Part shown: positions 2,731 through 23,240 of the stretch, piece by piece
How the letters are laid out: each line of letters opens with the position of its first letter
Position numbering within the stretch: position 1 is the first letter of the stretch
NCBI RefSeq assembly: GCF_032062105.1
Contig: NW_026935527.1
Location: forward strand, 124,001-188,000
Direction: 5' to 3'
Source: Saccostrea cucullata
Taxonomy: Eukaryota
Length of the DNA stretch: 64,000 nt
The notes under the pieces: model-generated
Told to the model about the DNA's origin: nothing
The model's input: the letters and a program-made list of their open reading frames with translations, nothing else
Database searches by the model: none
Translations under genes and position numbers: made by a program

Positions 2731-5600
2731 TTAATATTGGCACTTGCAAGGTTTTCCCTGTGGATAAAAAACAATAAATTAGTGAAAAAAATCATTCTAT
2801 GAAATATTAAAAGAATCATTTAAAGATATAAGATGATTTATATCCTTACCAGTTTCATCTCACAGACATAGTAGTTCTTATGAGAACAGCTGTCCACATG
2901 CCAGTGGTATTTGTAATGCTGCCAGAAAACTCCACAATTCCAGTCCCCTTCTTTGTGGTACACGGGCTCACTACCATACCAGTCAAACTTGTGGCATCTC
3001 CTCTTTGTGAATCCCCAGCTCCATCTGTGAGCGTTAGGGTAAAGACAGTCGTTCAGGGACATCCAGGCTCCAGGGGACACTTAATGATATACAAAAACCA
3101 TTATTGGACATATTCCATTCAAAGGGTATAAATATTAACAACCAGACTGTTTAAATTTATTCCCAGATAATTCATCTTCAGACAATATAAATAACAGCAT
3201 TGCTACTTTTCAGTATACTTACATTTGATCTATACCTCAATAACCTTTTTTTAAATATCATGATTGAAAAAAGAATGATCATGACTAAATCATGTTTATT
3301 AATGCTAATAAATGATAAACCTGTACATTTCTGCTTAATATGTCTATAATACGTCTTTTAAACACCACACATATGTTCCTGATATTCAGTAAAAGAAAAT
3401 TAACGAAAAGAACCATTAATTGTTTATAAGATGGTTATAATTTACCTCCATACATGGCCAGGTGATGCCTGACGTATGTATTTTCATGAGCTTCATCCAC
3501 ATTACACAGGAATCCTCCCATAGAAGCACATTTCATCTACAATTGAATATAGTGTGTTTACTGTTCTAATATTGCATAGAAAATAGGAGATCAGTTAAAA
3601 CAAATCGAAAAAATAGGTTATGCTAGGTATATGTGATGACAGAAAATATATCTTTAAAAATTCCAAATATGTATTTTCTCGCCTCTAAACAGATATTTTA
3701 CCTTTTATTATTGCCTTCAGAGCCACATCAAATACCGAAATTGAAAGCTATGCAATCTTACCGTAATTCCTGTTCTATTATTTGGTCATGCGTCTCCATG
3801 TGAGAGAAAAATTCTCGAAAGGGACATTAAGAAACATAAAATCAATCAATTTTTTGGTCACCGGCGTGATGCAGTGATTAGAACGTCTGCTCTAGAGTCG
3901 CATAGTAAGGAGTCAATCCTGATGTCGCGGGTTCAAATCCAGCTGTTGGACGGGAAGACCGGTCCTTCGGATGGGACCATATAAACAAAGGTCCCATGTC
4001 GCAGTAGGTGATGGCACAAAAAAGAGCCTTCCCTACTCAATGGCCCTGAGTGCCAAGTAAAGCACAGCAATTGTAGCTCTCCACCGGCAAATGGTGGCGT
4101 CTCCATATGATTGAAAAATTGTAGAGAGGGACGTTAAATAGCATACAATCAATATGATTGAAAAATTCTAGACAAAGAATACCGCGCGTTAGCGCGTTAA
4201 GGTGTGTTATAGAACCGAAGACATAAAAAAAAAATATATTTACATTCCCCAATTTTCCTTCTTCATAATTGTTTATTTCCTTAATCTCAAATGTGAATTT
4301 AGCGCCCTTCAAATCTGTCGTGGTAAATAGATGTAAGAGCTGTTTGTGACGTCAAATGACGTTAGATGACGTTGCAAAGTTAAATGACTCAAACAAACAT
4401 TGCGAGGAAAAAAGTGACAAATTAATTCTTAACGCACATCACGTTAATTTTTACGTTAATTTTTCAGGGTTAAAGTTTTTTCATTAAATTGAAATAAAAC
4501 ATTTTACATTTTAGTGTTCTTAGAGTATTGAAAATGCATATCGTTCCTACTGTGTATTCTAACGCGCGGTGACAAGGTTTCGCGTGTGTTATAGAAATTT
4601 GAACGTCGTGGATTTCTAATTGATTTCATAAGGAAAATTACACTGAATGTAAATATTATCATTTAAACAAGATTAAAATTGATTTAAACTTTCAAAAACA
4701 TGTACCTCTGCCTGCCACCATGTGAGTTTGTCTCGGCTGAAATAATAACAGCTGCCGTGGTACAGTGACCATCCGTATGGACAAGTGCCTGCAGCAACCT
4801 TGGCGGCCACATACCCGAATTTGCTGTATTTAGGGGCGTAATTGTAGCTTGCCTCAACAACTACAAAAATAGAAGACATATATAATATTTTTCTTTCAAC
4901 CATGACAGAATTTCTCTGATAACACTGGGTGTAAAGTATCAGATACTCCTTCAGGAACTTTTAAAACTATCATGTTATCATTACGACTAAACGACCCAAA
5001 TCAATTTCAGAATATTTTAAAGGTCTAGGACAGGAGCCGATTAAAAAATAAAGTATGGTGTTCATCTTTTTCAATCTTTATGTTACTGATAATTATAAAA
5101 GTATTATACTATTCCTTTTCAATGTTCGTGGCCAATGATTCTGCTACCGATTATATTAAGCTATTCCTTTTCAATGTTCGTGGCCAATGATTCTGCTACC
5201 TATTATTAAAGCTATCCTATAAATGTTGGTCAATTTGATTTATTTGCGCTCTGCAAAAGAGATTTTCGGTTATTTGACCAGATTTAGTGACACTACAGCG
5301 AGTCTGTAGGTGGGTAAGGTGTAGAATTTAAGTTCCTTATGATGACTTAAATTCCAATCCTTACCGTGTGTTAGCCCTACAAAGACCAACATTTACAGTG
5401 ACAACTGCAGCTGGCACTATACAGCATTTAATGACAAAAATTTGCAAAAGAACAAGTGAAGCATAATAATTACCAACCTTTATATAAAAATTTAAAAAAA
5501 CATATATTTGAAACAAGGAAACCAATCCTGTTTTTTTTTATCAGAATGTCTTACCTGATGCTACGGCAACTAATAATGATATAGCAAGGAAACAATTCAT
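2731..5600 (-). CDS. Secreted C-type lectin-domain protein, subtype A copy 1 (A1), perlucin-like, 182 aa
   Basis: Exons 5600-5555, 4860-4706, 3536-3446, 3079-2850, 2757-2731; all GT-AG and in phase (46+155+91+230+27=549 nt). MNCFLAISLLVAVASVVEA-SYNYAPKYSKFGYVAAKVAAGTCPYGWSLYHGSCYYFS...WNCGVFW...DSC...YVCEMKLGKPCKCQY*. Signal peptide plus long-form CTLD Cys pattern; AATAAA at ~2698-2703. Confidence 0.93.
3857..4153 (+). mobile_element. tRNA-derived SINE in A1 intron 2
   Basis: B-box-like GGTTCAAATCC head, body shared with the 25077, 44067 and 62396 copies, GGGACGTTAAA...(CAAT)n tail; a further SINE 3' fragment lies at ~3791-3850. Confidence 0.85.
5109..5200 (+). repeat. Tandem duplication, ~52-bp period, in A1 intron 1
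   Basis: CTATTCCTTTTCAATGTTCGTGGCCAATGATTCTGCTACC occurs twice. Confidence 0.85.
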
Positions 5601-5934
5601 GATTGATGCCTACTGAATATATAAAATGGATTCACCGTCATCCCTTATATAACGTCTCAATGCAATTTTTATGCAAGAAAATATTCACGCCTTTTTCATA
5701 TAAACAAGAAAAATTACTTGCTTTTGCAAACAATACTTTCTGCTGATAAAGATTTGAATCGACGTTTGTATGTAAAAACCTTATACTGATCGAAATGGGA
5801 GGCGTTAGGGCGGGATTTTATCCCTTGTTAAGTTGAAAATATATTGTAGAATACCAAATGTCTTCAAAGGGGACAGTATTATATATACATGTCGAAGTAC
5901 GAAATACCAGTGAGTTACCACAACTAGATCTAAA
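5601..5934. promoter_or_regulatory. Putative bidirectional promoter, pair 1 (A1/B1)
   Basis: 334 bp between divergent ATGs; TATA-like elements at ~5645-5652 (minus strand TATATAA) and ~5877-5887; GGGCGGG at ~5808-5814; forkhead-like GCAAACA at 5726-5732. Confidence 0.7.
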
Positions 5935-7369
5935 ATGAATTCAGTCGTGCTGGTTAGTCTCCTGGTTCTATCCATCCTTGCTGGTGAGTTTTATGTTAGA
6001 ATATATTGAATTATTGCAAGATCTTTTTTGTCGATAATTTCAATCCATTTAAATTTTTATTCTCCTTTGATATATTAATAAGTGTAAAAAATACATTAGG
6101 TTTATCATGAATTGCATGGGAATGTTTTTAAAATATCTTTCATTTATTAAACCAATTAAAAGGAGACGATTTCAATGACATAAAAATACCACTTTTTTAA
6201 GTCTCACAAGCCAGCTATAACGTAAGGCCAAGGTACAGTGCCTTTAAGTATGCTGCTGCCAAAGTTGTTTCTGGTGGTTGCCCTTACGGATGGCATCAGT
6301 ACAATAAACGGTGTTACTGGTTCAGCAGAGACCGGTTGACTTGGTATAGAGCTTCTGTAAGTTTATTTTCAAGTGCACCAAAATGAATCAACATTGATAA
6401 ATATTAGCAAGAGAATGTCCTATTCTTCACCTTTTCATTTTTTTCAAAATGAAGTATACCGACACTTAAAATTCTATAATTAGATGAGATGTGCCGCCAT
6501 GGGAGGATACCTGGTATCCATTGACCAGTCCCACGAGAACACTTACATCAGACACATGTGCAGCATTTACGGATGTAAGATTTCTTTTCTTATTGCTTTC
6601 ATATAAACATTGCAATCTAGCTCTAAGATGTTCTAAAACTTGTTTGAATCTTACTCTTTAAATCGAGAAAAATATGTCTTTGAGATCTTATTTAGACAGA
6701 AGAGGAGCATGGCTGGCTTTAAACGATATTCTGAGACCAAACAAGCATAGATGGTGCTGGGGGTTCATTTCAAAACCATGTCATAAATTTGACTGGTACG
6801 GTGAGGAACCAGTTTACCACACCACTGGTGATTATAATTGTGGCGCTTTCTGGAGATCATACAAATTCCACTGGCATGTTGATAGCTGTCAACAGAAAAA
6901 CTACTACGTCTGCGAAAAAAATTTGGTAAGTTATATTTGACGGAGTTTAAAGAAAGTCGAAAAGAAGCAAAATTACATTAAGCTTAATCTTTATATGTAT
7001 TATTCAAATAAAACTAACTCACAGAAATCGAGACAACTCGCTTTCATTTTAGAACTTCTCACTCGTAGGGAATAACAGCTTTTTATAAAATATCAGTGAT
7101 TAAACAAATGGGTTATTCACTGATAATTAAAACAACATTTTCATATACTTAATATTCAATATAAATTAAACCATAGCTATTCAATTAAAAATACCTTTGT
7201 AAAATCTTTATATCGTATGAATAAAGATAAATTTTAAGGCTAGAATTTATTTTGTTTTTTAATGATAAGATGGCGTTTGTATAAAACGTATAACACATGT
7301 TATTTACTGTGACCTAATGCAAGATTCCATCTTATTTTTCAGGGAAAACCATGTGTCTGTGCTTACTGA
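5935..7369 (+). CDS. Secreted C-type lectin-domain protein, subtype B copy 1 (B1), 183 aa
   Basis: Exons 5935-5983, 6202-6356, 6484-6574, 6696-6925, 7343-7369 (552 nt). MNSVVLVSLLVLSILAVSQA-SYNVRPRYSAFKYAAAKVVSGGCPYGWHQYNKRCYWFS...RWCWGFISKPCHKFDWYGEEPVYH...HWHVDSC...YVCEKNLGKPCVCAY*; AATAAA at 7376-7381. Confidence 0.93.
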
Positions 7370-10649: not shown

Positions 10650-12401
10650 CTAATAAGTACAATGACATGGCTTGCCCTGCAAAACAGAAAGAATAATGAG
10701 AACATTAAAGTAATAACTAACTCATACAAATAATGTATTTTTGCATATTAGTCAGTAAGAGATAAAATTAATTCAAAACATGGGCAAACTGATAATGCAT
10801 ATATGAAGTTAAAAATAAATAGACTAATAATGATAAGTTAATAAATAAATAAGAATAAATGACAAAATACCCTTCATTTATCATGCAACAAATGCTCTAC
10901 CTATAAAATGATGTAATACTAAATTAAAATGGCTTACCATGGGTTTCTCACAAACGAAATGGTTAACTTGTCCACAGCTATCAACATGCCAGTGGTATTT
11001 GTAAGACTTCCAGAAAATACCACAATTGTAGTCCCCAGTTTCGTGATAAACTGGTTCCTGACCGTACCAGTCAAATTTGTGGCATGGCTTGACGGTGAAT
11101 CCCCAGCACCATCTATGTTTGTTTGGCCTCAGAACATCATTCAAAGCCAGCCATGCACCTCTTCTGACTGCACAAAAAAGATACATTTTACACACCAGAA
11201 TATAAATTTCAAAACAAAATTCTTCAGGTAAAACTTTCCGTTGAATGCGTATGACTTACATCCATAGACGCTCAACATGTGTCTGACGTAGGTGTTTTCG
11301 TGAGACTGGTCAACGGAGACGAGGTATCCTCCCATGGCGACACATCTCATCTATAGATAACAGATGTTCTTACTTTTACTCATCTTTACTTTCTTACGTG
11401 TACATGTACAAGTGTTTTAGACTTAGTCTTTAGTTTAGTTTTAACGTCTCTTCTGTTTAGTTTTTTTAAATTTATTATACTCAGATTTAAAACAATAATG
11501 TTTAGATATGAGAAATTAGAGTCGAAATTTCAAGGAAATACTTACAGAAGCCTTGTACCAGTTGAGCTTGGTTCTGCTGAACCAGTAACAATGTTTGTTG
11601 TACTGATGCCATCCATGTGGACATCCACCTGAGCTGAGAGCAGCAGCATACTTGAAGGCGTTGTACCTAGGTCTGTTTCCATAGCTAGCCTCAGAAACTG
11701 TGGAAGTATTGAATTTGGTAATAATTGACCATTCACCTTTTTTACATAATATAATAATCTCGAACTGATTAAGATTTTAACAAAAGCATTTATTATTATT
11801 TTACAAGAGAGAATAATATACAACTGTTTACATGGTAAGCTATTTTGTGATTATCAGAGAGGTAAAAATATTCCTTATAACTCATTAGAAAATAATTTGA
11901 CTCTGAGTTTTAAGGTTGATTTTTTAAATAGTAAGGTAAACTGCTCATATATTTTCAAAATACTTTAAAATTTTATGCAGGAACTTAAATAAGTATATTT
12001 GTTGCCTAAAGACTAACCATTGCTTACAAGTACATATTGAACTTATAAAATAAAAAGATGATTAAAAAGTGAACTAAGTGTAAATTTAAATTATTTGTAG
12101 CTACCTAATTACAACTAAATTTCAATTCATATTTGTATCAAGTTCTCTACATTAACTAAAGAACTAATATGGGTTGATTATAGCAAACATAAAAATGCTT
12201 GTTCAGTTTTTTTTTTTTTAAGGTTTGATATTTTTTTTTATTGTTAAGGTATCAAGCTTATTACATATGATAGGTGAAAAACAAATTCAGAATTACAGTA
12301 TGAATATACAGAATCAAGAAAAAATATTCTGTGTCCAGAAAATACTACTCACCAGCAACAATGGCAGCTATGACCAAACAGGCTAAAATGACTTGATTCA
12401 T
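10650..12401 (-). CDS. Secreted C-type lectin-domain protein, subtype B copy 2 (B2), 182 aa
   Basis: Exons 12401-12353, 11697-11546, 11350-11260, 11167-10938, 10676-10650. MNQVILACLVIAAIVAVSEA-SYGNRPRYNAFKYAAALSSGGCPHGWHQYNKHCYWFS...FVCEKPMGKPCHCTY*; AATAAA at 10635-10640 (minus strand). Confidence 0.93.
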
Positions 12402-12712
12402 CTTTATGGAATCAGAGAATGTTGCTAAGAAAGAAGCACAGATCATTTATATACTGTAAGGGACACTGGTGACAAACGGTTACAGACCCGCCAAAATTAT
12501 GCTAGTTAAATCGAGCGTAATTTATGCTTGCTAGAGTAACACATTTGCTTTCCAAACTCAGCAAATATTTTCATGTTTGGTAATACTCCAATTAGTAATC
12601 GCTTGAGCACCTGATTTTTTTGTACATGCTTGCCAAATGAACCGTAACACAACAAGTACATATATTTGTGGAGTGGAGGGGGATAGGCACAGCTCAGTCT
12701 GAATCTGAAGCA
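12402..12712. promoter_or_regulatory. Putative bidirectional promoter, pair 2 (B2/A2)
   Basis: 311 bp between divergent ATGs; minus-strand TATATAAA at 12446-12453, TATA-like at ~12659-12667; CAGCAAATA at 12559-12567; alignable in blocks with 20296-20604. Confidence 0.7.
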
Positions 12713-14227
12713 ATGAATTCATTTATTGCGGTCGTTCTTTTAGTATGCGTCCTTGCAGGTAAAACTGGATTTACCTTTAAATAATTTGTTTGATTTTCTA
12801 AATCTGATCAAATGCAACAGGTTTTATATTTAGAAGGTTTTTTTTGTTTAATCTTAAATTAGATTTTTATCTTTAATAAAAATGTTTTCTCTTTTTTGTA
12901 GTTGTTGAGGCAAGCTACAATTACGCCCCTAAATACAGCAAATTCGGGTATGTAGCCGCCAAGGTTGCTTCAGGCACTTGTCCATACGGATGGTCACTGT
13001 ACCACGGCAGCTGTTATTATTTCAGCCGAGACAAACTCACATGGTGGCAGGCAGAGGTACATGAATTTGAACATTTTAATTAGATTTAACCTAGTTAAAC
13101 CATGAGCGATAAGTAAATGTTACATTTTCGAACTTTTAGTGTACAATTAATGGGATTTCATGTGGTTTTGATGACATAAGAAAATGTAAATTGAGTGTTT
13201 TGGGACAAGAAATACAAAATGGTTCTTGCAAATGTTTTTAGTTAAGATTTATTAATTTTTCTGACTCCAAGTGTACCTCGATTCTTCTGTGCGCAATTTA
13301 CCTTATTTTCAATTAAGTATAACTTACCCTACTATTTTATGAAGCAACATTATGATACACTCCATTTCATTTTTGGCAAATTGTAGATGAGATGTGCGTC
13401 CATGGGAGGATTCTTATGTAATGTGGATGAAGCTCATGAAAATACATACGTCAGACATCATCTGGCCATGTATGGAGGTAAATAAAACCATCTTTAAAAA
13501 CCTTGGTTTTTTTTGTTAGTTTTGTATTAATAAATGCGAGGGACTTAAGTTAGGTATTTATAAGTCATACAGTGTATTGCATTTAACTGTCTTTCAAGCT
13601 TAAACAAAGAAACGTTATCTGTTTTGGTATGTACGCGTTTGTTTTTATCTAACTGTGTATTCAGATAAATAAATAAATTTTGGCCTTGATAATTCTTTTT
13701 TAAATTATTTTTTGTGAATAGAACTAATGTAACTATAAAGACATGGAGCAATGCTGCTATCTCGTCTGTAACTTAATTGTATGAGATTAAATTTAGACAG
13801 TATGGTAGTTACCGGTATTATTTATACCCTTTGAATGGAATATGACCAATAATGTTTTTTTTAATATTTCATTAAGTGTCCCCTGGAGCCTGGATGTCCC
13901 TGAACGACTGTCTCTACCCTAACGCTCACAGATGGAGATGGGGATTCACGAAAAGGCGATGCCACAAGTTTGACTGGTACGGTAGTGAGCCCGTGTACCA
14001 CAAAGAAGGGGACTGGAATTGTGGAGTTTTCTGGCAGCATTACAAATACCACTGGCATGTGGACAGCTGTTCTCATAAGAACTACTATGTCTGTGAGATG
14101 AAACTGGTATGAATATGATTCGACTGTTGTTTTTAAATGATTCGATTTTTTAAAATTTAATATACTGATTTTATCACTAATTTAATGTTTTTATCCACAG
14201 GGAAAACCTTGCAAGTGCCAATATTAA
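12713..14227 (+). CDS. Secreted C-type lectin-domain protein, subtype A copy 2 (A2), 182 aa
   Basis: Exons 12713-12758, 12902-13056, 13387-13477, 13877-14106, 14201-14227. MNSFIAVVLLVCVLAVVEA-SYNYAPKYSKFGY...GKPCKCQY*. Confidence 0.93.
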
Positions 14228-17832: not shown

Positions 17833-20295
17833 CTAGTAAGTACAACGACATGGTTTTCCCTAAAAATAGAAGAAAAGAATCATTTTTATTTAATTCATAC
17901 TTTTTTTAAAAACCAATGTCGATTATAAACTCTCTTGACAAACATTGATATTCAACATACTAAGAAAAATGTATTTGGATGCAAGTACGACATACGAGGG
18001 TTGTTAGAAAAGTTCGCGGACACATTGAATTACAGAAAATCTATTGTTTACTGTGAAGTATGACCTATGACTGAATGAATTCCTACATTTTGTTTATTGG
18101 TATGTAAAAAATCAGGTCAATATAATAAAATCTTAAAATTTTACAACTATTTTTATTATGTGGTTATGGGATTCACGGAGCAATCACTTGACGTAAGGCG
18201 ACGTGACAACCAGATTTCAACCCTTTAAGCTTTGTCGCAGTTCTATGAATCTTTAATTTCTTTATATTTTTCTCATATTTTTTCTACTTTAAAATTGAAT
18301 ATCTATATCAAGACATGTTACTTTTCAACTATAATGTCTTTTTATCTGTTTTGGATATTATTGAGATCTTAAAAAATAAAAAAATAAAAAGGCTGTGCAT
18401 TCAATCGATCAGGTATGGAAACTATGCAAAACATAGGCGCAACGCAACGTCCATGCATAGAGGGGTATTTTCGATGTAGTTAATCATTTAAAATGTTTCT
18501 CCTTCCATTCTTATGAAGCTACAACCACTTGAAAACTTGTTCTTTGTATGTGTAGGATATTCCCGGCAGCATCTTAAACATTTTAGTCTCTTTTTAGACA
18601 TTTTCCTGTCTGCACACATAATTTTTACGTAGTGCACTGCTCCATGCTCAATGACGTTCCAATTTTTGGCTGTGTTCTTACGCGTTGATCATTTATAAAC
18701 AGCTATAAAACAGCCATATACCCTCCAATTTAGTTCAAACTTTTTCCCAGTGACGTTTCCTGCATACTTTAGCGGAAGGTAAAATATCATAAATCTCTTG
18801 GCACTACAATTGTGCAATTTTTAATTTTAATAAAGAGTCTTTGTGATGTAAACGTGTCATAATGCAGCATGCTCCATGAAGCAAGATTTATCAAAATAAA
18901 AATGCCGTATATTTTTCAATAATCACCGGAGAGCACCAAATTCTTGTATATTTATTGGAAAAAATGTCAAGATTATATCTGGAAAGTTTGACCGGTTTCA
19001 TGGAAATAGCGCGATCACAATAGAACTTGTCCGCGAACTTTTCTAACACCCCTCGTATTATAATCAATGAAATTATTACTGTGTACATATGAATACAGTT
19101 CTTGACTTACCATGGGTTTCTCACAAACGAAATGGTTAACTTGTCCACAACTATCAACATGCCAGTGGTACTTGTAAGATTTCCAGAAGATACCACAATT
19201 GTAGTCTCCAGTTTCGTGATAAACTGGTTCCTGACCGTACCAGTCAAATTTGTGGCATGGCTTGACGGTGAATCCCCAGCACCATCTATGTTTGTTTGGT
19301 CTCAAAACGTCATTCAAAGCCAACCATGCTCCTCTTCTGACTACACATAAATATTTTTTACAATTTATAAATAGATGAATTCAAAACAATTAAAAAACGT
19401 TCTCATTGGGTACTCATAACTTACATCCATAGACGCTCAGCATGTGTCTGACGTAGGTGTTTTCGTGGGACTGGTCAACAGAGACGAGGTATCCTCCCAT
19501 GGCGACACATCTCATCTACAGATTATAAGATAATTGGCGTACTTCTGATCATTGTCCAATTCAACAAAAAAATGTTTCCTTCTGAGATATTTCAACTTCT
19601 TTTCATTTGGTGTATCTGAGAAATCTCTCTCTTTCTTATGGAGATGGGATGGGGGTCATATGGTCAATGTGATGATACGCTGCAGCGAGAATTTTAAAAT
19701 TTTGAACTTACAGAAGCCTTGTACCAGTTGAGCTTGGTTCTGCTGAACCAGTAACAATGTTTGTTGTACTGATGCCATCCATGTGGACATCCACCTGAGC
19801 TGAGAGCAGCAGCATACTTGAAGGCGTTATACCTAGGTCTGTTTCCATAGCTAGCCTCAGAAACTGAATTTTACAAATAAGTGTCAAGCTCAGAATTCTT
19901 ACAAGTCCAAATGTTTTATCACGAAGGTTGTCTGGTGAAGGTCAAAAACAATTTTCGAAGTTGTTTTTTCTCAACTAGATTATATTTTAAGAATTCCAAT
20001 GTTCTTTTCTCCAAGAATATATTATAATAAAATCCATAAGTTGTAAAAGTTGTAAAAAGAAATGACCGGAGATATTTAAGATTTTTATTCTTTCGACAAT
20101 GTAATTAAACAAAACAGATTTTTGTACGATATTTAATTAAAAAAATTGCACTATATTTGAACATTTCACGGAAAAGTATTATACCGATCATGCTGATATT
20201 CCGTATTTTTAAAGTATAAGATACACTTATTGGCAATGTTACTCACCCGCTACAATGGCAGTTAGGATCAAACTGGCTAGAAGAAAGGAATTCAT
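17833..20295 (-). CDS. Secreted C-type lectin-domain protein, subtype B copy 3 (B3), 182 aa
   Basis: Exons 20295-20247, 19863-19712, 19515-19425, 19340-19111, 17859-17833. MNSFLLASLILTAIVAVSEA-SYGNRPRY...GKPCRCTY*. The last intron is expanded by a mariner-type MITE. Confidence 0.92.
17995..19055. mobile_element. Non-autonomous Tc1/mariner-type element (MITE) in B3 intron 4
   Basis: 28-bp TIR CGAGG(T/G)TGTTAGAAAAGTTCGCGGACA-type with 1 mismatch, TA on both sides (17993-94, 19056-57), no transposase ORF. Confidence 0.9.
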
Positions 20296-20604
20296 TTCGT
20301 GGAATCAGTGAATGATTCTTTGGGAGAAAGATGACGAGCTTATATAGTGTTTGGGTTAAAATAATTTTTGCACAGGCCTGCCAGAATCATGTGTGTTCAA
20401 TCGTCTGTAAACCTTAAGTAGAAGACAACTACGTTGTGATCGTGCAAATTCAGCAAATATGTGTGTTTTACCTAACATCTCAATTATTTATCATTACAAT
20501 AAAATATTAATCGTTTCACATGTTTTGCTAAATGTACCATGAACCGACAGGTATATATGCTGGCGGTAAACTGTAGATGTACAGTTACTTTTGAGACTGA
20601 AGCC
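20296..20604. promoter_or_regulatory. Putative bidirectional promoter, pair 3 (B3/A3)
   Basis: 309 bp between divergent ATGs; TATA-like elements at ~20339-20347 and ~20552-20558; CAGCAAATA at 20451-20459. Confidence 0.7.
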
Positions 20605-22423
20605 ATGAACATCTTTATTGCTACCGTTCTTCTGATAAGCCTTTGTGCAGGTAAAACAGAAATAATTTTAACAGTTTAACATATTCTTATTTCATTCGCT
20701 TTTTCATTCCAATTTTTTTTTACAATATTCGCCTCATTTAAGATGCATCAGTGATGAATTAGTTCAATTTTAATTTGTGCTAAGAGATGTGTAAAATTAT
20801 ATACATTCAATTTTATTTAGTCATCGACGCCAGTTACAATTATGCCCCTAAATACAGCAAATTCGGATATGTAGCCGCCAAGGTTGCTGCAGGCACTTGT
20901 CCATACGGATGGTCACTGTACCACGGCAGCTGTTATTATTTCAGCCGAGACAAACTCTCATGGTGGCAGGCAGAGGTATATAAAGCTTTATTTAAGTCTT
21001 TTATTTTTTTGTTTACAAACAGCCCACCATGGAAAAAGTCTTATCCAACTCCTTTTGAAAAGCAAATTAAAGCGTGTCAGTCGGTTATCAATGTTCATAT
21101 AAATGTTCATCTCAATGAAATAAAAAGCATTGTTATTTTTATAGATGAGATGTGCGTCCATGGGAGGATTCCTGTGTAATGTGGATGAAGCTCATGAAAA
21201 TACATACGTCAGGCATCACCTGGCTATGTATGGAGGTAGGGATCTTCATAACTGATCTGAGCTGAGAAATTATTATATAAATATTGCATGTAGTTGAGTA
21301 TAACATTGAAAATTTTCACCCCAAGAAAACCATTGTCAACCGAGGCGCAGCCGAGGTTTTCGAGGGGTGAAAATTTTCAATGTTACACTCAACTACATGC
21401 AATATTTATTATATTATACTGAATTTTTATACAAATAAATATAACAGCGAATCGTACACGCATAAATTCTGCGCAGTCGCTATTTTTTTTTTTGGAATAT
21501 CACCGGTCGTCAAGCACTGTTGACTGTTGCTACGCTGGAGGGCGTGGCTTCATTATTCAGCTGGTAATAGTGTTTCTTAACAAATGTTTCTCGACCAATC
21601 AGATTCAACTAATTTACATGAAAGTATAATATATGTATATATCTAACATATTTATTATGTAAATGGATGAAATACATGTACTAGTTCAAATTAAACACCA
21701 GAGCTGGGATCAAGTTTTTTTTAACTTGAACTCAAGGAGGACAATTTTTTGTATAACTGGAATAAAAAACATTTACCAGTAGGCCTATCTTCCATTGTGC
21801 ATTCATGTATTCTTTTTTTTAAATTATGTTATATTTGATTACTTTACATCTGCATGTATTTTGTTCGAATAAATTCAGATTACTTTTTAAAATTTTTGGA
21901 AAGAGCATTGATTACTCTCAATGAAAAGATTTCAAGTTACTAAGTATTTTGTCAAAGAAATAACCATGCATGTTCGAAAAATTCGTGAAAATTGCCTTTA
22001 CAATGTGTATAAATTAAATAAGATATGAAAATTTTCAAGATATTTGTTATGTAATTTCATTCTAAGTGTCCCCCGGAGCCTGGATGTCCCTGAACGACTG
22101 TCTCTACCCTAACGCTCACAGATGGAGCTGGGGATTCACAAAGAGGAGATGTCACAAGTTTGACTGGTATGGTAGTGAGCCCGTGTACCATAAAGAAGGG
22201 GACTGGAACTGTGGAGTTTTCTGGCAGCATTACAAATACCACTGGCATGTGGATAGCTGTTCTCATAAGAACTACTATGTCTGTGAGATGAAACTGGTAA
22301 GGACTTAAATCATTTACATAACTGCAATTTTTTTTCTCTAATAAATGAAAATCGTTATACAGTCACTAACAATATTTTTTTCTTTTCGCTAAACAGGGAA
22401 AACCTTGCAAGTGCCAATACTAG
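20605..22423 (+). CDS. Secreted C-type lectin-domain protein, subtype A copy 3 (A3), 182 aa
   Basis: Exons 20605-20650, 20821-20975, 21145-21235, 22067-22296, 22397-22423. MNIFIATVLLISLCAVIDA-SYNYAPKYSKFGY...GKPCKCQY*; AATAAA at 22441-22446. Confidence 0.93.
21272..21630. mobile_element. Hairpin-bearing non-autonomous element, Crypton-like, in A3 intron 3
   Basis: ~50-bp-arm inverted repeat 21277-21409 around CCGAGGCGCAGCCGAGG, then short IR pair ATTATACT/AGTATAAT with a subterminal ACCAATCAGA; absent from A1 and A2 intron 3. Confidence 0.65.
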
Positions 22424-23240
22424 ATGTTAGATATTACGTCAATAAAACAAATAAATTCATTTCAAAGTATTTTAAATTCATTTTGTATTTTACTGTCGTA
22501 ATTATTTCTCTAAAAAAAAAGTCAAAGATAAATTAATCATTGATCTGCTTGTGCGTTAAATCCATTTTTACGGCCTGTACACTTTCGATTTGTGAGAAAG
22601 ATCGGTTCTGAAATAGGGGACGTATCATTCATAACACCTCACTCTCTGCTAAAAAGACTATTCCTACATTCATCTACATTTTAACTATTACTACAAGTAC
22701 TTTTCATTCAATGTTATGCCCAAAAGAGTTGACCAGGCCTGCAATTAGGTCTTAACCTCACCTTTTACCCCTTCCTGCTAACCGACCAATCTTGCAATGC
22801 ATTGAAAGTCCATCTTTATTTGCAAAACATACATATAAATATATATAATACTGGTAGTGTTTGGATAAAAGTAACTTCTGAAGTTTTAAATTCGGGAAGG
22901 ATCCATTGAATAAAAAGAAAATTTCTGTAGTGCATAGAGTTTTCTCAAAAAAGAAAGAATTTTTTCGTGATTTTTTTTAAAGTGACGTTTGTTTAATTAC
23001 CCGAAAGTTTCTTTATGATGTATTTTTTATACTGGTTGTCGATTTTCTCAAAATTGTCTACGTTTACAATCTATCTTCAAATATTGCTAAGATAAGAAGA
23101 ATTAAATAGATCCTATTTTTATGTACCTAAAAAAAATGTTTCAAATGGCTCCAATTTTCCCATTTGTCAGCATTTTGAGACATGTTTTGTTATATTTTCC
23201 CCGAGACCGACCGTCACATTTATTTAATTTGATTTTTTAA

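Follow-up and report, generated by a model that had tools for sequence, protein, structure and literature searches.

A conserved C-terminal Cys-x-Cys tail exon in head-to-head oyster C-type-lectin-domain genes, a candidate inter-chain linker in a probable larval adhesive

Introduction

What might an eight-residue tail with two cysteines, spliced onto the end of a lectin-like domain, be doing on six neighbouring genes of the oyster Saccostrea cucullata? The genes lie in a 64,000-nucleotide stretch of contig, here called the window. An earlier note on this DNA described their shared ending, GKPCxCxY, as a modular cross-linking tail for inter-chain disulfide polymers or metal binding. Our main reading, to which we give roughly even odds (a probability of about 0.5), is that the tail cysteines form inter-chain disulfides, probably in dimers of an A-type and a B-type chain or in small oligomers. 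Papers are cited by PMC number, and what we take from them refers to the portions of each text that were available.

Results

Six genes with a separate terminal tail exon

The window contains three genes of an A type and three of a B type, listed here with the coding parts of their last exons and the spacers between divergent start codons.

2731..5600, minus strand: gene A1; exons 5600-5555, 4860-4706, 3536-3446, 3079-2850, 2757-2731; 182 aa; equals P0063
2731..2757, minus strand: A1 exon 5 coding part, GKPCKCQY-stop
5601..5934: A1/B1 divergent spacer, 334 bp between start codons; TATA-like box close to both ends
5935..7369, plus strand: gene B1; exons 5935-5983, 6202-6356, 6484-6574, 6696-6925, 7343-7369; 183 aa
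7343..7369, plus strand: B1 exon 5 coding part, GKPCVCAY-stop
10650..12401, minus strand: gene B2; exons 12401-12353, 11697-11546, 11350-11260, 11167-10938, 10676-10650; 182 aa; equals P0011
10650..10676, minus strand: B2 exon 5 coding part, GKPCHCTY-stop
12402..12712: B2/A2 divergent spacer, 311 bp
12713..14227, plus strand: gene A2; exons 12713-12758, 12902-13056, 13387-13477, 13877-14106, 14201-14227; 182 aa; equals P0058
14201..14227, plus strand: A2 exon 5 coding part, GKPCKCQY-stop
17833..20295, minus strand: gene B3; exons 20295-20247, 19863-19712, 19515-19425, 19340-19111, 17859-17833; 182 aa
17833..17859, minus strand: B3 exon 5 coding part, GKPCRCTY-stop
20296..20604: B3/A3 divergent spacer, 309 bp
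20605..22423, plus strand: gene A3; exons 20605-20650, 20821-20975, 21145-21235, 22067-22296, 22397-22423; 182 aa
22397..22423, plus strand: A3 exon 5 coding part, GKPCKCQY-stop

As the earlier note had claimed, all six 27-nt stretches code for GKPCxCxY followed by a stop. An AG acceptor stands directly before each of them; those of B1, A2 and A3 are on the plus strand and those of A1, B2 and B3 on the minus strand. The gene models consist of five exons separated by GT-AG introns of phases 1, 0, 1 and 0, with products of 182-183 residues. The models of A1, A2 and B2 are identical, letter for letter, to the database proteins P0063, P0058 and P0011, and the last 115 residues of B1, B3 and A3 are identical to those of the shorter database models P0006, P0005 and P0061; the identical records carry the label Saccostrea cucullata. 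RNA evidence for splicing, which covers A2 only, includes the exon 4-5 joint in three of four runs mapped (94 nt skipped, GT..AG), and introns 3 and 4 of this gene are spliced out. The RNA reads are 90-99% alike to A2 and so derive from another A-type sequence, either an allele or a paralog; one raw-read run had only 22 matching reads among 12.8 million, and the runs carry no tissue label.

The tail is thus a separate, spliced last exon, as had been proposed, but the 27 nt are its coding part and not the whole of it: AATAAA lies 7-28 nt past the stop in all six window genes, so that the exon is terminal and continues into a 3' UTR, and a micro-exon was rejected. The tail also lies outside the C-type-lectin domain (CTLD), because the Pfam Lectin_C match stops at residue 172-173, although the domain-coding part does not end at VCE as stated earlier, exon 4 running three residues beyond it. 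Judged by their sequence, the six genes encode secreted long-form CTLD proteins, with Lectin_C scores of 38-42.7 bits (cut-off 22.6) in four of four proteins. The motifs expected of a Ca2+-dependent sugar-binding domain (EPN/QPD and WND) are lost: EPV replaces EPN/QPD and WHV(D) replaces WND, each in 44 of 51 aligned rows, and the classical forms occur in none.

Exons 3-4 are 92-97% identical among A1-A3 and 96-97% identical between B2 and B3, amid intron lengths that vary widely, a pattern that suggests strong constraint combined with either recent duplication or gene conversion. Within intron 1 of A1, a short stretch of about 56 bases is duplicated in tandem (window 5101-5215). Between positions 22500 and 64000 of the window we found no more family exons and no open frame longer than 129 codons.

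The tail across the genome and databases

Searching the 1.17-Gb genome with a strict DNA pattern for the tail yielded 13 matches, and with a reversed control 0; the tail is not a product of chance. Among the own-genome stretches fetched, 17 of 18 loci with family exon 4 also have a phase-0, eight-codon CxC last exon, and the eighteenth, which has none, is a broken fragment; in three divergent loci the candidate tail exon was chosen among those acceptors that have a cysteine after them, a partly circular step. The number of independent loci is below 18, because contigs C1827/C3700 and C4976/C8113 look like duplicate copies.

The sequence G-K-P-C-x-C-x-Y, which the earlier note called invariant, is so in the six genes, but family-wide only the two cysteines are. 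In 18 tails, counted with a pattern that required both cysteines, these occur 18 times each, G and K 17 times each, P 16 times and the final Y 13 times. Variants include GKPCECQL, GKKCxCHI and KEPCSCTF, so that the last residue is Tyr, Leu, Phe or Ile, and both TGT and TGC codons occur at each tail cysteine. Mean majority was 0.89 in the tail versus 0.79 in exon 4, for rows chosen by the motif, and the level of the tail was reached by 7 of 127 eight-residue domain windows, which makes its conservation high but not unique.

Among database proteins that have the domain end, 66 of 95 carry the tail. The remaining 29 are 26 contig-based predictions plus P0009, P0012 and P0013; in the contig predictions whose exon-4 end is shown, reading continues into intron 4, and P0012 and P0013 are annotated models that end without the tail. 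P0012 represents an annotated alternative last exon of an upstream B gene (G000:C17664:97582, minus strand, L023), about 8.5 kb past the tail exon and with a cysteine-free end, as given by the annotation only. A looser tail pattern matched 31 genomic sites versus 8 for the control, 16 of them non-family. Near the five of these 16 that were checked, there were no family exons within the stretches fetched and no sign of exons of another gene; on this evidence the tail was not found on any other gene, the label 'modular' finds no support, and a shuffled or mobile module was rejected.

Head-to-head A and B genes

Each of the five pairs on the contig consists of one A and one B gene, head to head, one of them with a broken A. 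In the window, 334, 311 and 309 bases separate the two start codons of a pair, and in one upstream pair the distance is 381; a TATA-like box stands about 45-55 bases before five of the six window start codons. From this layout we infer that A and B would be co-expressed from a shared spacer of 310-380 bp. The spacers 12402-12712 and 20296-20604 both contain CAGCAAATAT, which we take to be a forkhead-like site and a possible shared regulator of the two.

Two of the five A/B pairs lie upstream of the window (G000:C17664:106074-108613 and 111727-123244; L014-L016). In the broken upstream A gene, exon 2 is split by an insertion with inverted-repeat-like ends and exon 4, about 9 kb off, is disrupted; a tail exon was looked for in this gene and not found.

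The B sequences form a supported clade (100/97) in a tree of 29 rows, one that spans four oyster genera, so the A/B split is older than those genera; the A sequences form no clean clade, since long-fronted L paralogs nest among them. The close relatives belong to Saccostrea, Ostrea, Crassostrea and Magallana and are mostly named 'perlucin-like', an automatic name whose source is abalone perlucin, a protein marked by nacre location and calcite nucleation. A fold search with a model of A returned generic CTLDs only, and the ESM Atlas generic Lectin_C clusters only. Paralogs outside the cluster retain the tail, without established A/B pairing. Long fronts rich in Tyr/Lys, in Lys or in Cys occur in some paralogs elsewhere, and other-front paralogs lie at G000:C3700:25786-52000 and C17696:587649-588900. 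The front of P0081 combines Cys-rich repeats with a Gly-rich linker, that of P0104 is long, Tyr/Lys/Arg-rich and reminiscent of mussel foot proteins, and P0120 is of an acidic-domain type with a CECQL end.

A probable larval-adhesive setting

We consider it highly probable that the family belongs to a larval-adhesive setting, and the proteins are likely secreted by the foot of the settling larva into the settlement glue. In the Pacific oyster, six CTLD genes labelled 'perlucin-like' are pediveliger-specific, five of them with neighbouring numbers (CGI_10006917/19/20/21/22 and CGI_10010615); they are 44-48% like apfp-1, were reported to be poorly expressed in adult organs, and were co-selected at this stage with tyrosinases and one peroxidase (PMC6337334). 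Four of the proteins of these genes drop sharply after settlement (PMC7574277). P0049 ends in the tail and is 75% identical to A2; its name, asialoglycoprotein receptor 2, is also that of one of the pediveliger-specific genes (PMC6337334). The Pacific-oyster cluster, which shares this product name with P0049, consists of genes with neighbouring numbers plus one separate gene and is like apfp-1. It is probably orthologous to the window genes, on the basis of the shared name and two similar peptides and with no accession match; six family accessions were not found in the papers searched, and the supplements of PMC7574277 gave no match either. The available text of the pediveliger paper proposes lectin binding of the periostracum and says nothing of a tail, of A/B pairing or of the loss of the sugar motifs (PMC6337334).

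The fan-shell byssal protein apfp-1 resembles the family in being secreted, basic and Tyr/Lys-rich, with a C-terminal CTLD and about 10 cysteines, and differs from the window proteins in its long DOPA repeat region (PMC4912638); in the window proteins, about 21 residues separate signal peptide and domain. Comparison was possible for only two published apfp-1 peptides: YELKPGVW is similar to positions 96-103 of the family and GLNDVLFPK to positions 105-113, the latter peptide agreeing with the Pinctada relative P0144 in 8 of its 9 residues. apfp-1 itself was not among the identified search matches, and a profile search for longer relatives spanned 880-2510 residues, outside its size. The protein shows Ca2+-enhanced adhesion to mannan, and when extracted from the foot it has the mass of a monomer by MALDI, 38.7 kDa (PMC4912638); acid extraction favours monomers, and the C-terminus of apfp-1 is not visible in the source.

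In one alternative, the cysteines of the tail would remain free thiols during storage and come into play only once secreted, by forming DOPA-quinone adducts (cysteinyl-DOPA), by keeping DOPA reduced, or by binding metal together with a His-rich surface. Mussel byssus contains thiol-quinone cross-links and thiol antioxidants, which speaks for such a role. So does composition, the mature A2 and B2 chains being 9-11% Tyr and about 7% His with a pI of 8.8-9.2, as do the tyrosinases and peroxidase co-selected at the pediveliger stage (PMC6337334) and the occurrence of DOPA in apfp-1, monomeric in extract (PMC4912638). The constant length and spacing of the tail and its G-K-P lead-in suggest a defined structure instead, and two cysteines make up only half a usual metal site. 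Moreover, the secretory pathway usually oxidises free thiols at a protein's surface or holds such proteins back. Overall, we regard storage as free thiols as unlikely, if the best placed of the alternatives.

Cysteine pairing within the domain

Do the tail cysteines have partners in their own chain? The six canonical domain cysteines (Cys42, 53, 70, 146, 162 and 170, in A2 numbering) are present in all full-length rows. In DC-SIGN and other long-form domains, the place that matches residues 38-41 is where a C-terminal cysteine is caught; none of the 51 rows has a cysteine there, and neither the A nor the B front segment has a spare N-terminal one. By analogy with known structures, the canonical cysteines would form the bonds C0-C0', C1-C4 and C2-C3, and the tail would leave strand 5 at the N/C pole of the domain (PMC6468738).

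Beyond these, Cys126 occurs in 51 of 51 aligned rows, accompanied by Cys109 in 29, Cys118 in 15, Cys79 in 3 and none of these in 4, and Cys109 and Cys118 are never found together, a pattern that amounts to about five lineages and not to 51 independent cases. Cys111 takes the companion place in two genomic paralogs, and a companion at 109, 111 or 118 is absent from three D-type rows and a Y-type paralog. Most simply read, Cys126 would find its partner within the long loop and without involving the tail, presumably Cys109 in A and Cys118 in B, though the rows lacking such a companion tell against this; Cys109 of A and Cys118 of B could instead form an inter-chain loop bond.

An intact 312-codon paralog (G000:C3700:56101-59098; L020), absent among the proteins returned by searches, has a long Lys/Thr/Ser-rich front and ends in KEPCSCTF. 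Its cysteines are the six canonical ones of the domain, one at residue 18 and the CxC of the tail, with neither Cys126 nor its companions. Because the extra domain cysteines replace one another pairwise, and because the tail persists in this paralog after their loss, a partner for the tail within the same chain is improbable. Pairing of the tail with the extra domain cysteines, which the earlier note had named as the case that would refute it, is accordingly disfavoured by the data. In addition, all 24 A rows have an extra Cys78, and their cysteine count is odd in 24 of 24; after the signal peptide there are 11 cysteines in A1 and 10 in B2, and the count is even (10) in the B, L and D types. 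Per chain, the two tail cysteines, plus Cys78 in A, would thus be left unpartnered. AlphaFold2 monomers built from 51- and 49-row alignments had a mean pLDDT of 51.4 and 55.5, and cysteine pairing cannot be read from them, the tail and the long loop being below 50.

In another alternative the tail is satisfied within its own chain, its two cysteines closing a CxC ring or exchanging with Cys42/Cys53 or with Cys78/Cys126; this would only clamp the terminus and yield monomers or non-covalent dimers. The even count of 10 in B, L and D accords with it, as do the monomer mass of apfp-1 (PMC4912638), the description of intramolecular CXC bonds as 'rare but known' (PMC6811590) and the N-to-C intrachain bond of SPL-1 (PMC12842671). 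It has to contend with the odd count in every A row, with loop cysteines that compensate among themselves, and with the L020 paralog, in which the tail persists without extra domain cysteines, and we judge it rather improbable.

Discussion

Since the data speak against a bond between the tail and the extra cysteines of its own domain, inter-chain disulfide bonding is likely, and this part of the original proposal holds up; its polymers do not, as the closest precedent forms dimers only. That precedent is the Anopheles pair CTL4/CTLMA2, which like A and B consists of two secreted single-CTLD proteins from back-to-back genes, and whose chains are linked by a Cys-x-Cys-type motif that lies at a terminus, beyond the domain (PMC6811590). 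It is an analogy only: the mosquito motif is an N-terminal CXCXC, the role is in immunity and there is a single gene pair (PMC6811590). Among bivalves, SPL-1 of Saxidomus is an A/B heterodimer of CTLD chains, as proposed here, with two inter-chain bonds through Cys2 and Cys4; its sugar motif is non-canonical, as in our family, and its cysteines are N-terminal (PMC12842671). Rings of the convulxin/flavocetin type are built from alpha/beta CTLD heterodimers cross-linked by terminal cysteines at the N/C pole, and require spare cysteines at both ends and a swapped loop (PMC6468738); of these, the oyster proteins lack the N-terminal spare.

The weakest alternative, in which the two tail cysteines bond two different neighbours to give open-ended polymers or rings, perhaps atop loop-mediated A/B dimers, could draw on the chain growth that two cysteines per tail permit, the spare Cys78 of A, the head-to-tail linkage of snake-venom lectin-like heterodimers into rings by terminal cysteines (PMC6468738) and the profit of covalent networks to a permanent cement, but it appears very unlikely given that CTL4/CTLMA2, with three cysteines each and promiscuous pairing, form no disulfide-linked higher oligomers (PMC6811590), that N-terminal spare cysteines for head-to-tail links are absent, and that apfp-1 is monomeric in extract (PMC4912638).

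The likeness to IgM and IgA that the earlier note had drawn does not carry over, as the final Tyr occurs in 13 of 18 tails and the last cysteine is third from the end, not penultimate. The immunoglobulin tailpiece is, like the oyster tail, a short C-terminal cysteine-bearing extension on its own genetic segment; it is longer than eight residues, has one penultimate cysteine followed by Tyr, and depends on the J chain.

The reading that we prefer, inter-chain disulfides through the tail, would run as follows. The tail is the family-wide last exon of oyster apfp-1-like CTLD genes, and the A and B chains of one head-to-head pair, co-expressed from their shared spacer, would be joined by their tail cysteines. 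Each tail would leave the domain at the N/C pole without a partner in its own chain, tail-to-tail bonds would yield dimers or small oligomers, and the odd Cys78 of A might provide a third link into the cement matrix. A bolder version, which we hold to be quite doubtful, would make the A/B cassette a two-component covalent cement block that has lost its sugar site, polymerises through the CxC tails on secretion, branches at Cys78 and co-polymerises with tail-bearing paralogs that have Tyr/Lys-, Lys- or Cys-rich fronts. If true, the tail would be a shared connector that assembles a modular glue.

Parts of this picture are already known, namely the gene annotation and the probable orthologs, published as adhesive candidates, and linking CTLD heterodimers by terminal cysteines is a known device. 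The strings GKPCKC, GKPCVC, GKPCRC and GKPCHC were not found in published text, figures and most subscription papers lying outside this search; within the same scope, we found no published description of the tail, of its independence from the loop cysteines or of the repeated A/B cassette.

The larval adhesive of oysters is hard to extract, and what it consists of chemically is an open question (PMC6337334). The genes described here are among the best candidates for it, and the tail together with the A/B pairing gives a specific and cheap test of assembly, as the question reduces to two 19-kDa chains and two cysteines. The answer would tell whether mosquitoes and oysters arrived separately at CTLD gene pairs that stand back to back and carry terminal CxC linkers, and has a bearing on settlement in aquaculture, on fouling and on wet adhesives.
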